From a virus (lineage: Duplodnaviria > Caudoviricetes), in the IMG/VR virus record IMGVR_UViG_2061766007_000342, positions 160,001 through 224,000 of that record: a stretch of DNA of 64,000 nt; one strand, given 5' to 3'. The notes below the pieces were generated by a model. It was given only the letters and a program-made list of their open reading frames with translations, had not been told where the DNA came from and ran no database searches. The translations under genes and the position numbers were made by a program. Within the stretch, counting starts at the first letter, position 1. Every line of letters starts with the position of its first letter. Of the stretch, positions 363-48,719 are shown one piece after another.

Positions 363-1487
363 TTATTTGGAATCGGTTTCATCTGGTTCCCATTGTAAGT
401 ATTTTGTTTCAATTGCCATTGATGATATTGTTTTAGATCTGGATTTTATCCAAATCTTATCCATTCTAACTGAAGAGTCATAAATATCATAGTAATAACA
501 ACGTTTACCACAATATCTCAATCTCCACGTAGTTTGTTTAGCAGTCAAAGAGCTAACATATGGCGAACATGATATAATCGCAGTGATACCTGGAATATCG
601 GTACCAGTACCACATGATCCAATTGTTGTAACAATGACATCTGCATGTTTATTTGCTTCATTCTCGGATTTGGAATTCTTTGAATTGATCGTTTGGATGT
701 TCAAATCATAGGGGAATGATTCATCATAATTCAAATGTTTATGTAAATAATATGAAGTGTCAATACATAAATCGATCAATGGCATGAATATTAACACTTT
801 AGCAGATGGGTCACGTTCATAAATCATTTTAACAATATCGGTTACACATTTAATGTGTGTTTGTTTTTTGTCATATTGAATGACCCATTTTCCATAAGAA
901 GCAGGTGACATTTTACCTCGATAGCCTTCAACTCTGAATTTCACAATTTTCGGGTTGGCATTTGTATTGATTTCAACGACATTATATTCAACCCATTTCT
1001 TAGGTTTGCTTTCTGATAATAGTGATGATGGTTTATAAAACAATGCATTTGAAAATACATGACGAAATATAATATTTTCATTCTTTGATGATCGACCGTC
1101 GGTTGCTGTTAAATATAAATTTCGTTGAATATTAAATACGAAATCCATCATTAATGTATCTCGAAACTCTAAATGTGCTTCATCAATAATTTTTAATCCA
1201 ATACCAAGTACACGTGGAATATTAGCCATCTTATCTAAATCACGAACACGTTTTAATCCTGCTCGGAATGTTGCATGTGTCATCAAATAGATATCATAAT
1301 TCGGATCATGACCATTTGCAATCGCTTCCAATTCTTCAGATGTTTCGATCTCGTGAACATCTTCTGACGTGAGACCTTGCAACTTATACAATGAATCTCT
1401 CCATTGTGTGCGTAATGTATCTCGATGCATAATGATTAATGTTTTCTGGTTATACAAGCAAGCAGCTCTTCCGGAACAATACGTTTT
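363..1487 (-). CDS. SF2 (DEAH) helicase, C-terminal part beginning with the KT of Walker A
   Basis: Frame is open upstream of the track start (1457) and reads KTYCSGRAACLYNQK from 1487; motifs IIDEAH (II), TAT (III), GTGTDIPG (V), QTTWRLR (VI-like); no SD before the TTG at 1457. Confidence 0.85.
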   Translation of the reverse strand, partial: KTYCSGRAACLYNQKTLIIMHRDTLRTQWRDSLYKLQGLTSEDVHEIETSEELEAIANGHDPNYDIYLMTHATFRAGLKRVRDLDKMANIPRVLGIGLKIIDEAHLEFRDTLMMDFVFNIQRNLYLTATDGRSSKNENIIFRHVFSNALFYKPSSLLSESKPKKWVEYNVVEINTNANPKIVKFRVEGYRGKMSPASYGKWVIQYDKKQTHIKCVTDIVKMIYERDPSAKVLIFMPLIDLCIDTSYYLHKHLNYDESFPYDLNIQTINSKNSKSENEANKHADVIVTTIGSCGTGTDIPGITAIISCSPYVSSLTAKQTTWRLRYCGKRCYYYDIYDSSVRMDKIWIKSRSKTISSMAIETKYLQWEPDETDSK

Positions 1488-1492
1488 GCTTG

Positions 1493-1903
1493 TTAACCGA
1501 AACCACCAGTTTTCACTAAAAATATCTGTTGTCTGTCATTGTTTGAAGAATGCTCATTTAATCCGGCAATAAAATTGATAACATCAGTCTGTTCAATATT
1601 ACGCGGAGGAATGATTTCTTCATGTTCATATTTCATTGATCTGGAATTGATTGCTTGTATAAAATTAACGTGAACGTTATTTAATAATCTACGAATATAA
1701 TCCAGATTAACCCCACGATGAATATACAATAAATTGTTTGCTTCATCCAATAAATATCCTAATGAAATAATATCATCTTGAAACTCATCTTCAAATTCCA
1801 GTCTGGAAATTAGTTGAGATAACGGTTCAATAGCTTCTTTACCAGGATAAACGGTATATGACGTTGGACGAACACACAGGGTGAATTCCGTTGTGGTTTT
1901 CAT
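1493..1903 (-). CDS. SF2 helicase, N-terminal part (Q-motif and first half of Walker A)
   Basis: SD GAGGTG; PPRNIEQ Q-motif; ends KTGGFG-stop; parallels the N-terminus of the paralog at 46239-48719 (EPRSQLQ...PGVGK). Confidence 0.8.
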   Translation of the reverse strand: MKTTTEFTLCVRPTSYTVYPGKEAIEPLSQLISRLEFEDEFQDDIISLGYLLDEANNLLYIHRGVNLDYIRRLLNNVHVNFIQAINSRSMKYEHEEIIPPRNIEQTDVINFIAGLNEHSSNNDRQQIFLVKTGGFG

Positions 1904-46238: not shown

Positions 46239-48719
46239 TTAGCAATAAATTGGTGGTAATTGTTTATAATGACCACTTACACCTGGGAATGATTTCAGAA
46301 CAACTCTACGTTTCATGCCCCATTTCTCAAATGCACGTGCATACTTGACATGATCACATATGTCGAAGTAATAGCATTGGAATCCGCGGTCACGTAATCT
46401 ACCAACAATCTGTTCAAAGATGATAGGTGATGATTTCTGATCAAAGTTAACAACTGCACCTAGATTGGAGATATCAACACCAGTTCCACATGACATGGTT
46501 GTTGATAAGATAATGTCGGATTCAAACGCTTTTTGTCGTTCGGCAATTGGCATAGAACCATCAACATGTGCAATAGTATATTCCTTGAAGTATTCTTGTT
46601 TCTTCATCTCCTCTTCAACCATTGCTATGGCATCAAGTAATGGTAATAACAATAATACTTTACCTTGTTCTTTGATCTTTTGTGCAACTTTCACCATGTG
46701 GATGACATTTGCAACGAATGGTTTGCCATTACGATAATCCATCAACATACGATAATATGTTGCTGATATCAAACCTTTCTTACCATATTTGAAATGCTTC
46801 TGACACAACTGTGAAGAAGCATTGTAATGGATATCTTGAAGATATGGAATAATGTATTCGGTTTGATATTCTTCGTACTTCTTGGAACCAACGAAACGTT
46901 CTGCATCCGATAATGCACGATTCAGCACACGGTCTTCTACTTCATCAGAACGACCAAGTGTTGCCGATAAATAGTAATTGTGTTTGATATTACAGATTGC
47001 ATCAAACTTTAATAAACCTTTCAAATGAAGATGTGCTTCATCGACAATACGAATACCAAAGTTCGCTTTGTCCATAACATCCATAAGTCCCTTCCAATCA
47101 TCACGCAATGCATTCTCGATGGAAGAGATTGTTACGACACATAGTTTCTTATCTGGTGCATCATAGATACGAGTTGCAATATCATCTTCATCAATACCGA
47201 GATCAGTAAAGTTTTCAATCCACTGATTCTTTAGGTTGGCTGTTGGTGCAATGATGATAGGTTTCTTCTTTAACAAATATACCGCATACAGAGCCATGAA
47301 TGTATTATGTGTTACAATGTAATCTTCGGTAAGATACAAGTGTTCTGGATTGTCAACCATGATGCATCGGCATTGTTCTCTATGGGATAATTCAATATTT
47401 GTTATACGAAGTTTTGAATAGTCATGTCTACTTGAAGATTTGGTATCATTTACTGCTTCATTTGCAATCAATAATTTTCGTGGATGTGTCATGATTAAAT
47501 TCTTAATAGAATTTGGGATTCTAAAATACAAATTTGCACAAAATCCACTCGTATATTTCTCAACACGTTTATCAATTGCCAATCTGGATGAGTATCCAAA
47601 TGAATATAATAATTGTTGTAAGTCATTTAGTAAATTCAATGATGTTGAACAATATGACACATAATATCCTTTTGATGATATTGAACCATCAGTGTCCATT
47701 AGACCCTGCAACAGCTTTAAACGAACATCAACACTGTTGATCAGATACATATGTGGTATTCTTTTTTCATAAGAGTATGAATCAATAAATTCCGGAAGAT
47801 CTTTGAAAAACTGCTTTTTGTCAATCGGTTTAAGAGTTTTCTTATCATAGAAATCATATGTGTAATTATGTAAAGAGCGTCTACGTACACCGAATCCACA
47901 TATTTCAGCGATTTTATTCGGAACATATTCATCTCCGGAAGAAATCGCAAAACATCTATCTCGTAAACAACCATTACCAATTAAACATCCGAGAACATAA
48001 GGATCAATGGGTACATTGGTATGTGGAAAATTAACCGGATCACATGTTGGAATATAGATTTTTTTATGAGCTATATTCTTGATCAGAGTCTCTGTGGTAA
48101 CAGTTGTCCATTCATTACTATCATCCGTTTTAATTGTCCATAAATGTTCCAAACCACACATCGCGGTTCTTCCATCTTGGAATGTTATTTTATAAACATT
48201 TTTCACGCCTTGTTCAAAGATACCTGTAACATGTGTCATCATACCATCTCGTGAGAATACTGTATCACCAATGTTGAGATCACCCATCTTCACATAACCA
48301 TTTGGCGTAGGAATTAGTGTTGAATATGGTTGTTCCTTACCGACACCGGGTTTCACTTCGATGGTAAGCTTTGGTGATTTACATTTCACCATAGCATCAA
48401 TACAGTCTCTTTGTAATTGTGAACGTGGTTCACGATTCATCTTGATTTCAATTGTTGCTCCTTCACGTGGAGGAATTGTCTTGATGAATTTCTTTAATGG
48501 AATAACGTTCTGATCTTTCATGGTTAAGAATCCGGACGTAATGTACAATACATCATGTTCTTTACCAAAGATGGGCTTCTTATTTATATCTTTACCAACA
48601 TAAATGAAGTATTCACGCACTGGATCTTTCAATGAGAAATAACGTAAAGCTGCACGTTTGACTTCATCGGATGGTTGATGAATAATCAGTCCGGTTGTTG
48701 TTTTTTCAACCTGTTGCAT
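46239..48719 (-). CDS. SF2 (DEAH) helicase containing an intein
   Basis: PGVGK|intein|T, IVDEAH, SATLGRS, CGTGVD, QIVGRLR. Confidence 0.9.
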   Translation of the reverse strand: MQQVEKTTTGLIIHQPSDEVKRAALRYFSLKDPVREYFIYVGKDINKKPIFGKEHDVLYITSGFLTMKDQNVIPLKKFIKTIPPREGATIEIKMNREPRSQLQRDCIDAMVKCKSPKLTIEVKPGVGKEQPYSTLIPTPNGYVKMGDLNIGDTVFSRDGMMTHVTGIFEQGVKNVYKITFQDGRTAMCGLEHLWTIKTDDSNEWTTVTTETLIKNIAHKKIYIPTCDPVNFPHTNVPIDPYVLGCLIGNGCLRDRCFAISSGDEYVPNKIAEICGFGVRRRSLHNYTYDFYDKKTLKPIDKKQFFKDLPEFIDSYSYEKRIPHMYLINSVDVRLKLLQGLMDTDGSISSKGYYVSYCSTSLNLLNDLQQLLYSFGYSSRLAIDKRVEKYTSGFCANLYFRIPNSIKNLIMTHPRKLLIANEAVNDTKSSSRHDYSKLRITNIELSHREQCRCIMVDNPEHLYLTEDYIVTHNTFMALYAVYLLKKKPIIIAPTANLKNQWIENFTDLGIDEDDIATRIYDAPDKKLCVVTISSIENALRDDWKGLMDVMDKANFGIRIVDEAHLHLKGLLKFDAICNIKHNYYLSATLGRSDEVEDRVLNRALSDAERFVGSKKYEEYQTEYIIPYLQDIHYNASSQLCQKHFKYGKKGLISATYYRMLMDYRNGKPFVANVIHMVKVAQKIKEQGKVLLLLPLLDAIAMVEEEMKKQEYFKEYTIAHVDGSMPIAERQKAFESDIILSTTMSCGTGVDISNLGAVVNFDQKSSPIIFEQIVGRLRDRGFQCYYFDICDHVKYARAFEKWGMKRRVVLKSFPGVSGHYKQLPPIYC
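47304..48335 (-). mobile_element. Class-3 intein (344 aa) with LAGLIDADG homing endonuclease
   Basis: Begins EQPYSTLIPTPNG, block B CGLEHLW, LAGLIDADG motifs LGCLIGNG and LQGLMDTDG, block F CRCIMVD, ends VTHN followed by Thr. Confidence 0.92.

Follow-up and report, generated by a model that had tools for sequence, protein, structure and literature searches.

Natural cases of translational bypassing are few, comprising T4 gene 60 and the relatives of its cassette, the byps of yeast mitochondria, and the candidate terminases of the PhiHau3 group. The terminase gene of the Streptomyces phage PhiHau3 offers a precedent, in which short gaps (7-10 nt) that follow a Gly codon are bypassed; with UAA as the A-site codon, mass spectrometry detected the junction peptide in E. 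coli (PMC10732093). The terminases of PhiHau3, StrepC.1 and an S. catenulae prophage are considered bypass candidates (PMC10732093), as first proposed by Smith et al. in 2013. Synthetic stop-hops and other short hops in E. coli, from Weiss et al. 1987 onward, made use of engineered constructs and were of low efficiency (reviewed in PMC5009743). That 2016 review knew of no natural in-frame stop-hop, noted a long-standing expectation of short-distance counterparts of gene 60, and reported that minimal pairing at the landing site is sufficient in some systems (PMC5009743).

The window, that is, the whole 64,000-nt stretch of viral DNA analysed here, carries a jumbo-phage helicase gene that is interrupted by 8 nt inside its Walker A motif. 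The arrangement resembles that in PhiHau3 in that a very short non-coding insert (10 nt and 7 nt in the terminase candidates) lies in an essential phage ATPase gene, behind a Gly take-off codon and with a slow-to-decode codon in the A site, for which a stop can substitute in PhiHau3. The nascent chain ends in both cases in Gly-aromatic-Gly (KGWG there, K.xGFG here), and the PhiHau3 g6/g7 gap also falls between ..GWG and KD.., according to the protein segments quoted in PMC10732093. The A-site codon of PhiHau3 is the rare UUA, a proposed sensor of host tRNA-bldA, whereas a genuine stop codon (TAA, TAG or TGA) takes its place here. Three genes are known in the PhiHau3 group, compared to 13 gap types of seven lengths in the one gene family described below, which includes near-cognate landings and a second take-off codon (Phe). 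The gene, the phage group and presumably the host also differ.

The earlier note likened the locus to hopping in T4 gene 60, and the likeness extends to mechanism but not to homology. As in gene 60/MobA, a Gly take-off codon is followed directly 3' by a stop, reading would resume after a landing codon that matches (in the window at two of three positions), and two ORFs would give one protein (PMC5009743; bioRxiv 10.1101/2022.08.31.505936). In both, the neighborhood is one of DNA metabolism, and the site is of a kind on which homing endonucleases act. The gap in gene 60 is 50 nt (20 nt in one clade) in a topoisomerase gene, as opposed to 1-11 nt across the present helicase family and 8 nt in the window. 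Gene 60 relies on a nascent-peptide (KKYK-type) signal, a take-off stem-loop and an internal SD, whereas no shared structure was found here. The gene 60 cassette travels with an adjacent mobA HNH endonuclease gene, whereas neither an adjacent endonuclease gene nor sequence homology was found at the helicase locus. With an 8-nt gap, a helicase gene, no endonuclease domain nearby and a hairpin in the window's clade alone, the locus falls outside the gene 60/MobA cassette.

The mitochondrial byps of Magnusiomyces capitatus are similar in being many short inserts corrected in translation, with a take-off/landing match that is at times imperfect (two-out-of-three) (PMC5009743). They are 27-55 nt long, occur in many mitochondrial genes and place an unassigned codon in the A site, whereas the gaps described here are 1-11 nt long, at one site of one gene in a bacterial system. 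Synthetic stop-hops were engineered, whereas the present gaps are natural, conserved and under selection. A point of likeness is that the in-frame 9-nt form would yield one amino acid for its 9 nt. Formally, the 1-nt alleles found in relatives use the same mechanism as the +1 "shifty stop" frameshifting of the prfB type, but overlapping re-pairing cannot cross the 8-nt gap of the window.

The interrupted helicase gene and a proposed hop

The minus strand of the window reads, in order, AAA ACT GGT GGT TTC GGT (1498-1496), TAA (1495-1493), CAAGC, AAA (1487-1485) and ACG TAT TGT. The upstream ORF (1903..1493, minus strand) has 136 codons plus the stop and ends in TGGFG*. Its coding part (1496..1903), with the ATG at 1903-1901, aligns with the N-terminal approximately 135 residues of intact relatives of 505-513 aa, and its end, ...IFLVKTGGFG, covers strand beta-1 together with the first half of the Walker A loop. 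Relative to the upstream ORF, the downstream sequence lies in the -1 frame, which is open from 1535, contains FRLTSKTYCSGRAAC, and stops at 365-363. The C-terminal segment (366..1487, minus strand) has 374 codons and starts with AAA ACG, the K-T of Walker A. It carries DEAH, TAT and the helicase C domain, with the motif IIDEAHLEF, and matches Pfam ResIII (33.4 bits; cut-off 22.5) and the PHROG 16 DNA helicase (8.5e-23); the scores for Pfam DEAD and Helicase_C lie below their cut-offs.

Deletion of 1488-1495 (TAACAAGC, the non-coding gap on the minus strand) joins the two reading frames, as the earlier note had claimed, into 136 + 374 = 510 residues with the P-loop GGFGKT. The same P-loop, within the motif TGGFGK[ST]YC, is found in intact relatives (P0004, P0005; 505-513 aa). 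The 8 nt can be positioned in alternative ways that differ by up to 2 nt, given that TAACAAGC, TTAACAAG and GTTAACAA each restore FGKT. By its core features, the predicted product is an SF2 helicase (ResIII / DEAD-like) whose Walker A is complete only with the gap skipped. A topoisomerase II subunit gene adjoins the helicase gene, in a neighborhood of DNA metabolism. Megablast of the locus against GenBank phages gave no match, and the nearest named relatives by tblastn are helicases of AR9/PBS1-type and Staphylococcus jumbo phages, which at approximately 24% identity are too distant to inform on the gap.

Ribosomes probably hop the 8-nt gap, such that a programmed short translational bypass yields one 510-aa helicase. 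The ribosome would read the N segment up to the proposed take-off codon GGU (1498-1496, minus strand). With peptidyl-tRNA-Gly on GGU in the P site and UAA (1495-1493) in the A site, codon-anticodon pairing would be lost, the mRNA would slip forward by 8 nt, and tRNA-Gly would re-pair via two G:C pairs on the proposed landing triplet AGC (1490-1488), which is near-cognate for a GGY-reading tRNA-Gly and pairs at positions 2 and 3. Decoding would then restart at AAA (Lys) to give a single SF2 helicase with an ordinary GGFGKT Walker A loop, while ribosomes that instead terminate at UAA would release a 136-aa N fragment. The efficiency of the hop in the window could be low, given that AGC is only near-cognate in comparison to GGY. 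Such a hop would add a rare natural example of translational bypassing over a very short distance.

Gap types and selection among relatives

The window was compared to 47 relatives from metagenomes, for a total of 48 unique alleles. Twenty-two are intact, six carry an intein after GFGK, and 20 are gapped at the P-loop site. The alignment with homologs, suggested earlier as a check for gaps of variable length, uncovered gaps in 20 of the 48, and further look-ups bring the total to 13 gap types, with lengths of 1, 5, 6, 8, 9, 10 and 11 nt. All 20 interruptions fall inside one 3-nt window of the P-loop, and the rest of the approximately 510 codons is free of them. This pattern is beyond chance, given that 20 of 48 unique alleles are hit at the same site with no other interruption in either half. 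The types include T, TGAGC, TAGGT, TAACGC, TAACAAAGC, TGAATTGGGT and two forms with TTC take-off. The 1-nt allele is nested within the 5-nt (TAGGT) clade. The in-frame variants of 6 and 9 nt also fit stop read-through.

The order of Gly take-off, immediate stop and near-cognate landing that the earlier note described for the window recurs as a rule throughout the series. In all 13 types, as in the window, the gap starts with a stop (TAA, TAG or TGA) right behind a Gly (GGT/GGG) or Phe (TTC) codon, such that the stop would occupy the A site when the tRNA takes off. Directly 5' of the codon at which reading would resume, the gap ends in a triplet that agrees with the take-off codon at two or three positions in every type. 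Landing triplets in relatives are GGT, GGC, AGC, CGC and GAC for Gly take-off and GTC and ATC for Phe take-off. Five gap types of relatives have an exact GGT or GGC landing (3/3), and the others match at 2/3 (AGC, CGC, GAC; TTC to ..GTC or ..ATC), as does AGC in the window relative to its take-off GGT. A match of 2/3 could partly stem from an insertion after the first base of an original GGC or TTC codon, and AGC in the window could likewise be partly a remnant of the original codon. The 1-nt form has GGG followed by a stop, and a slip to the overlapping GGT fits the same rule (GGG TAA G/A). Where a gap of at least 5 nt follows Gly, the codon used is GGT in all 15 unique relatives, as opposed to 6 of the 22 intact alleles. 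The lengths span all three frame classes, and skipping restores GFGKT every time; gap length and frame are free and the flanks are constrained. An alternative genetic code was rejected, since TAA, TAG and TGA all lead gaps and the frames differ.

Allele-specific recoding could in principle cross the same gaps by -1 frameshifting (5, 8 and 11 nt), read-through (6 and 9 nt) or +1 frameshifting (1 and 10 nt), leaving two to four extra residues within Walker A. The downstream frame is indeed open across the gap of the window (..FRLTSKT..), the -1 product of alleles with GGY landings, GFGLxGKT, still fits the generic GxxxxGKT, and GGG-UAA in the 1-nt variant amounts formally to an ordinary +1 shift site. 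However, three different mechanisms would be required at one site, and the mechanism would have to change from the window (8 nt) to a strain of 97% identity (9 nt). No slippery heptamer is present, and backward re-pairing of tRNA-Gly on CGG would involve one of three positions. The most conserved motif would acquire variable insertions (LS, LG, LTS, xQS, LGSI...), and the -1 product of the window, GGFG-LTS-KT, would lose the Gly before Lys, as would the products of several other alleles; the earlier claim that only skipping of the 8 nt restores the P-loop stands. The bias to GGT at take-off and the landing-triplet rule would be left unexplained, and recoding of this kind is judged improbable.

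Selection acts on both halves of the gapped gene. The comparison of dN/dS suggested earlier gives values of 0.015-0.28 in both halves for gap-gap pairs (24 of 26 values below 0.18) at dS 0.08-2.7, compared to 0.02-0.08 for intact-intact pairs. The same gap is kept while synonymous sites approach saturation (pairs L002/L003, L051/L052 and L021/L065), and no further stops or frameshifts were found in the 20 gapped alleles. Judged by these substitution patterns, both halves are open and under purifying selection like intact alleles, and relaxed selection and added lesions, as expected of a pseudogene, are not seen. The low dN/dS in both halves also contradicts a recent inactivating insertion, which had been left open. 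The strain L106, which has 97% DNA identity to the window and carries TAACAAAGC (9 nt) at the same place, differs from it in the C half by 52 synonymous and three non-synonymous codon changes. In the KT region the differences are synonymous only (ACG/ACA, TCC/TCT), which suggests that these codons of the window are translated. Comparison with relatives thus strongly indicates bypassing.

The gaps might instead be non-functional scars in a dispensable, dead gene, as footprints of endonuclease cleavage and repair or of imprecise loss of a mobile element. In this phage group, that P-loop DNA is indeed a target of LAGLIDADG inteins and group I introns, and gaps are gained and lost fast, as near-identical alleles differ at the site (L007 and L041 intact, L008 and L017 gapped); no co-conversion tract is visible around the gap among these four. 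The selection on both halves, with dS to about 2.7 and as in intact alleles, makes scars very unlikely, as do the lack of a second lesion in any of 20 gapped alleles and the retention of identical gaps near synonymous saturation. A random origin also would not always give Gly or Phe plus a stop at the start and a matching triplet at the end.

A truly split gene, with the 136-aa N fragment bound non-covalently to a C fragment that is initiated on its own, would account for the conservation of both halves. Large phages have split RNA polymerase and topoisomerase subunits, and AR9/phiKZ-type phages are known for split genes. Some alleles have TTG at or near the stop (TTGA in the TGAGC type; TTG GGT AAG in the 1-nt type), such that termination-reinitiation is conceivable there. 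In the window, however, no ATG, GTG or TTG occurs in the downstream frame from its upstream stop to the Lys codon, and the first, a TTG at 1457, lies past KT. The TAGGT, TAACGC, TAACTGGC and TAAATGGC types likewise have no such codon up to KT, yet the KT codons are conserved with synonymous changes. Interruption of the chain inside GK[ST], between Gly and Lys, would place charged termini in the phosphate-binding loop; moreover, the two halves are fused in 22 of 48 alleles, and the split is confined to this one site. A split gene therefore has a low probability, below that of allele-specific recoding.

Finally, the 8 nt might be removed or absent at the level of nucleic acid, through RNA excision or editing, polymerase skipping, mixed DNA, or an assembly or homopolymer error (CAAGC in place of CAAAGC). 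The 8-nt form does occur only in the window, and its three closest gapped relatives carry 9 nt. We know of no mechanism that splices out 1-11 nt, and a stop-led gap would remain even with 9 nt in the window. The gaps are multi-base and lineage-specific, and gapped alleles recur over many independent assemblies from different pipelines (P0109 in 17 contigs; also L106), such that the assembly error considered in the earlier note does not fit. There is very little probability that the explanation lies at this level.

The helicase family forms a comparative series of 13 variants and seven lengths at one site, with exact and near-cognate landings and two take-off codons, beside alleles that are intact or bear an intein. 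From this series, the minimal needs for hopping on bacterial ribosomes could be worked out.

Searches for stimulators and further hop sites

An RNA hairpin of uncertain significance is predicted at 1448..1498 (minus strand), in which the take-off codon and the gap (1498-1486) pair with 1461-1448. The minimum free energy is -25 kcal/mol for 111 nt, with a z score of -2.25, and 6 of 200 shuffled sequences folded as well. The same helix appears in the minimum free energy folds of L106 and L005, and those folds are not significant. Nothing comparable was found for the other gap clades and the intact alleles (z of -0.9 to +1.0), and no stimulatory signal common to all gap clades emerged. No conserved upstream SD stimulator of the prfB-like kind was seen, and the nine tRNA genes of the phage include none for Gly or Phe and no suppressor.

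A scan of the genome sought long ORFs in which a second long open frame, without a nearby start, runs across the stop codon. This gave 23 junctions and recovered the helicase site. The two other junctions with a Gly codon before the stop were inspected, and both look antisense or of low complexity.

Homing elements at the same P-loop DNA

A paralogous SF2 helicase of the window (46239..48719, minus strand) carries an intein in its P-loop (GVGK|T). The intein, at 47304-48335, has 344 aa and a LAGLIDADG homing endonuclease, and matches the gp41-1 intein (PDB 6riz; 4.3e-10) and PF14528 (41.1 bits; cut-off 22.5). The inteins after GFGK in six of 48 alleles of the gapped helicase belong to the same family. 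Among 10 orthologous loci of the paralog, five are intact, two bear the intein and three are interrupted by a group I intron; micro-gaps were found in none of the 10.

The P-loop DNA at which the gaps lie is also a target of homing inteins and group I introns, which suggests that the gaps may persist by disrupting the target of P-loop-specific homing endonucleases and may give homing immunity. In the fullest form of this proposal, the stop-led gaps of 1-11 nt would be a natural family of minimal bypasses, for which little beyond Gly or Phe take-off, a stop and a two-base-pair landing is required; their origin and persistence would be due to breakage of the sites of P-loop-targeting endonucleases (intein LAGLIDADG and intron-borne) while the ribosome restores the protein. 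This combined proposal is tentative, and we consider it possible although well short of probable. If true, it would describe a small-scale analogue of the T4 gene 60/MobA arrangement that lacks an endonuclease, and the shared P-loop DNA target makes recoding as immunity against selfish endonucleases testable.

No endonuclease domain was found in the ORFs neighboring the gapped loci, and the extra ORFs that lie between the topoisomerase gene and the helicase gene in L003 and L004 lack a Pfam domain. A resident intein of this family is present in five of 20 relatives' records, among them records in which the allele is intact, gapped or intein-bearing. Many of the records are fragments, and across the 20 there is no simple correlation between gap and resident intein. 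The complete genome G002, which is gapped, has no such intein.

Gene callers split the gapped genes into two ORFs, and approximately 28% of the protein clusters found contain nothing but C halves. The same phenomenon may lie hidden in other "split" P-loop genes of phage metagenomes.

The interrupted helicase gene and its relatives

The upstream ORF of the helicase locus (1903..1493, minus strand) consists of 136 codons, ending in IFLVKTGGFG and then TAA. The downstream segment, in the -1 frame relative to the upstream ORF, extends for 374 codons from an AAA at 1487-1485 to a stop at 365-363. Its frame is open from 1535 (minus strand), reading FRLTSKTYCSGRAAC, with no ATG, GTG or TTG before its Lys-Thr codons; the first such codon is a TTG at 1457. 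That the locus is a split gene for two separate subunits is rather improbable. The C segment scores as a ResIII/SF2 helicase by Pfam (PF04851, 33.4 bits against a cut-off of 22.5) and by PHROG 16 'DNA helicase' (8.5e-23). Skipping of 1488-1495 (TAACAAGC) gives 510 residues including GGFGKT, which bears out the claim of the earlier note that an exact 8-nt gap separates the two parts of a helicase of about 510 aa. The same peptide is also restored by two alternative gap placements, offset by 1 or 2 nt. The window represents bases 160001-224000 of a source virus record of 257,908 bp that is 96% complete.

A query with the C half detected 257 homologues in metagenomes. Among the best 120 clusters of these, 79 are uninterrupted proteins of about 500-530 aa with the motif [GP]GFGK[TS][FY]C, 33 contain the C half only, and 7 are long forms of about 584-654 aa. 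The long forms carry an in-frame insert directly 3' of GFGK that ends in VTHN and is followed by T, and the insert is therefore taken to be an intein. DNA was retrieved for 31 IMG/VR loci, 56 metagenome loci and several ENA, JGI and Logan contigs; de-duplication left 48 unique alleles, with 22 intact, 6 intein-bearing and 20 short-gapped at one site. Alignment of homologues, proposed in the earlier note as a search for gaps of variable length, thus revealed gaps at one site in 20 of the 48 unique alleles; the gap types seen number 13, of 1-11 nt.

A common rule for the gaps

The shortest gap, found at several loci, is a single T after GGG, with re-pairing on an overlapping GGT. A GGT take-off codon, the last before the stop, is followed by TGAGC or TAGGT (5 nt) or TAACGC (6 nt), each at several loci; by 8 nt in the window (TAACAAGC) and in the relatives' loci L017 (TAACTGGC), L018 (TAAATGGC), L019 (TAAATGAC) and L080 (TGAATGGC); by the 9-nt TAACAAAGC in L005, L037 and L106; and by the 10-nt TGAATTGGGT in L115. 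In L008 and L026, IMG/VR contigs of 294,548 and 202,267 bp, the gap lies one codon earlier, after Phe (TTC TAG...): TAGCAAGTC (9 nt) precedes GGG AAA in the former, and TAGGTAGCATC (11 nt) precedes GGA AAG in the latter.

In all 13 types a stop codon (TAA, TAG or TGA) lies directly 3' of the take-off codon, and skipping of the gap restores GFGK[TS]. The landing triplet, the last three nucleotides of the gap and next to the resume codon, agrees with the take-off codon at all three positions (GGT, GGC) or at two of them (AGC, CGC, GAC; GTC and ATC for Phe). The Gly take-off, immediate stop and near-cognate AGC landing described in the earlier note are present in the window, and the same rule recurs in the gap types of relatives. 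A matched second base together with a pyrimidine third base is found in 11 of the 12 non-overlapping types, against about 1 in 8 expected by chance; the types are partly non-independent, but they represent seven or eight lineages at the least. All 15 unique alleles that have at least 5 nt of gap after Gly use GGT for take-off, while the same codon in the 22 intact alleles is GGC (7), GGA (7), GGT (6) or GGG (2). If the insert entered behind the first base of what had been a GGC or TTC codon, the two matched bases could be a remnant of that codon, which would account for the landing match. Such an origin would leave unexplained that every insert first completes a Gly or Phe codon and next provides a stop.

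Selection, frame indifference and a proposed hop

The gapped alleles, with N parts of about 133-153 codons and C parts of 370-379, contain no further stop or frameshift. The comparison of dN/dS in both halves that had been suggested gave 0.015-0.28 for gap-gap pairs (Nei-Gojobori; 24 of 26 values below 0.18; dS 0.08-2.7), the maximum being the N half of the window versus L005, and 0.02-0.08 for intact-intact pairs. Identical gaps are kept near synonymous saturation in L002/L003 (TGAGC, dS 1.2-1.9), L051/L052 (TAACGC, 0.9-1.5) and L021/L065 (TAGGT, 0.9-1.3). Low dN/dS in both halves without a second lesion speaks strongly against a pseudogene, and makes it very doubtful that the gaps are dead scars. 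The same gaps recur in independent assemblies from different pipelines, which speaks strongly against an artefact; the TAACGC type is present in the metagenome protein clusters P0117 (10 contigs) and P0109 (17 contigs). Error, which these recurrences oppose, or removal of the gap at the nucleic-acid level has very little probability.

The most telling result for the window itself is its comparison with L106, a locus from another sample with 97% DNA identity, in which the gap is the in-frame, 9-nt TAACAAAGC rather than the 8-nt TAACAAGC that shifts to the -1 frame. The N parts differ by 26 synonymous and 7 non-synonymous codons and the C parts by 52 and 3, and from the landing triplet to the first possible start the differences are synonymous only (ACG/ACA, TCC/TCT). 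A frame change between the halves is therefore tolerated under strong constraint on the C half, as would be expected of a gap that is skipped, with the landing triplet fixing the point of resumption. It would not be expected of a fixed -1 frameshift or of read-through, and a mixture of such conventional recoding events is an unlikely explanation. Pointing the same way, the 1-nt allele L020 is nested within the TAGGT clade on the tree, and near-identical alleles are variously intact (L007, L041), gapped after TTC (L008) or gapped after GGT (L017). Parsimony requires the gap state to have changed about 10 times across the tree, with at least 5 of these changes forced by starred branches. The comparative evidence supports the bypass interpretation of the earlier note, and it is probable that ribosomes hop over the gap and so yield an intact P-loop.

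As judged from the sequences, the one mechanism to fit all variants is forward re-pairing of the P-site peptidyl-tRNA. With the stop codon in the A site, peptidyl-tRNA-Gly (or -Phe) would leave its codon, the mRNA would shift by 1-11 nt, the anticodon would re-pair with a cognate or near-cognate triplet, and Lys would be decoded next (Gly-Lys after Phe take-off). In the window, the move from GGU to AGC would give two G:C pairs, one at codon position 2 and one at position 3. It is chemically reasonable that a wobble-paired GGU would be abandoned for a triplet ending in GC or GU. The Phe take-off in L008 and L026, with GTC and ATC as landing triplets, indicates that the phenomenon is not tied to tRNA-Gly alone. 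The nine tRNA genes of the whole genome of the window's phage, G000 (Leu x2, Pro, Glu, Thr, Lys, Ser, Met and Gln, clustered at 18-42 kb), include no tRNA-Gly, tRNA-Phe or suppressor tRNA, so the tRNAs used would have to come from the host. Termination would yield the 136-aa N fragment, and the gap could therefore also attenuate expression.

No stimulator common to all gap clades was found. A hairpin is predicted in the window between the take-off codon plus gap (1498-1486, minus strand) and 1461-1448 (z -2.25); it recurs in the minimum-energy folds of L106 and L005, neither of which is significant, and other clades lack it. With one bulge, the sequence of take-off codon and gap comes close to a reverse complement of 1461-1448, a stretch encoding CLYNQ. 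Either selection for a hairpin or template switching in a repair event that created the gap could account for this complementarity.

Among described cases the nearest is the PhiHau3 terminase, in which inserts of 10 nt (one prophage has 7 nt) follow a Gly codon and the nascent chain ends in KGWG; its bypass junction peptide was detected by mass spectrometry in E. coli once a rare UUA was changed to UAA (PMC10732093). The likeness to T4 gene 60 drawn in the earlier note holds for the Gly take-off, adjacent stop and matched landing, but that gene is non-homologous and its 50-nt gap requires elaborate signals. Synthetic stop-hops demonstrate that such events are possible, with no natural in-frame case known as of a 2016 review (PMC5009743). 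A search of open-access papers and preprints yielded no account of this helicase family or of micro-gaps in P-loops. If true, the hop would represent a minimal, highly variable and recurrent form of translational bypassing.

Homing elements at P-loop DNA

A paralogous SF2 helicase in the same window (46239..48719, minus strand) has its P-loop, GVGK|T, interrupted by an intein of 344 aa (47304-48335, minus strand) with two LAGLIDADG motifs (PF14528, 41.1 bits) and PDB matches to the gp41-1 and DnaB inteins (4e-10 to 7e-9). Another intein of this family (46-49% identity) is located outside the window on the plus strand (G000:C1:45279-46397; locus L094 52-2904), at the Walker A site GASGLGK|S of an ABC-transporter-like ATPase of 950 aa that has a membrane domain at its N terminus. 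Three related phages have a group I intron instead at the P-loop of the paralogue (L099 2187-2508, L100 2213-2510, L105 2176-2491; Rfam RF00028, 60-70 bits), which ends just 5' of GGA AAG AC (G-K-T). L100 belongs to the same 294-kb genome as L008, whose other helicase has the 9-nt gap with TTC take-off.

The occurrence of inteins and group I introns in several P-loops indicates that P-loop coding DNA in these phages is repeatedly targeted by homing elements, and between the gaps and the intein insertion point there are 3-6 nt. It is only an idea, by analogy, that the gaps would disrupt a homing target, in the way reported for the T4 gene 60 gap and MobA (bioRxiv 10.1101/2022.08.31.505936). No endonuclease gene was found next to gapped alleles, and no simple co-occurrence of the gap with a resident intein was found across the records of 20 relatives. 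L003 (445-1050, 201 aa) and L004 (350-835, 161 aa) have an extra ORF, without a Pfam match, between the topoisomerase and helicase genes, which the window lacks.

The inteins of the 6 intein-bearing alleles of the gapped helicase family have end motifs in common with the paralogue intein. The first residue of the latter is Glu rather than Cys or Ser, and its relatives begin with A, L, P or M, which suggests class-3-like splicing chemistry.
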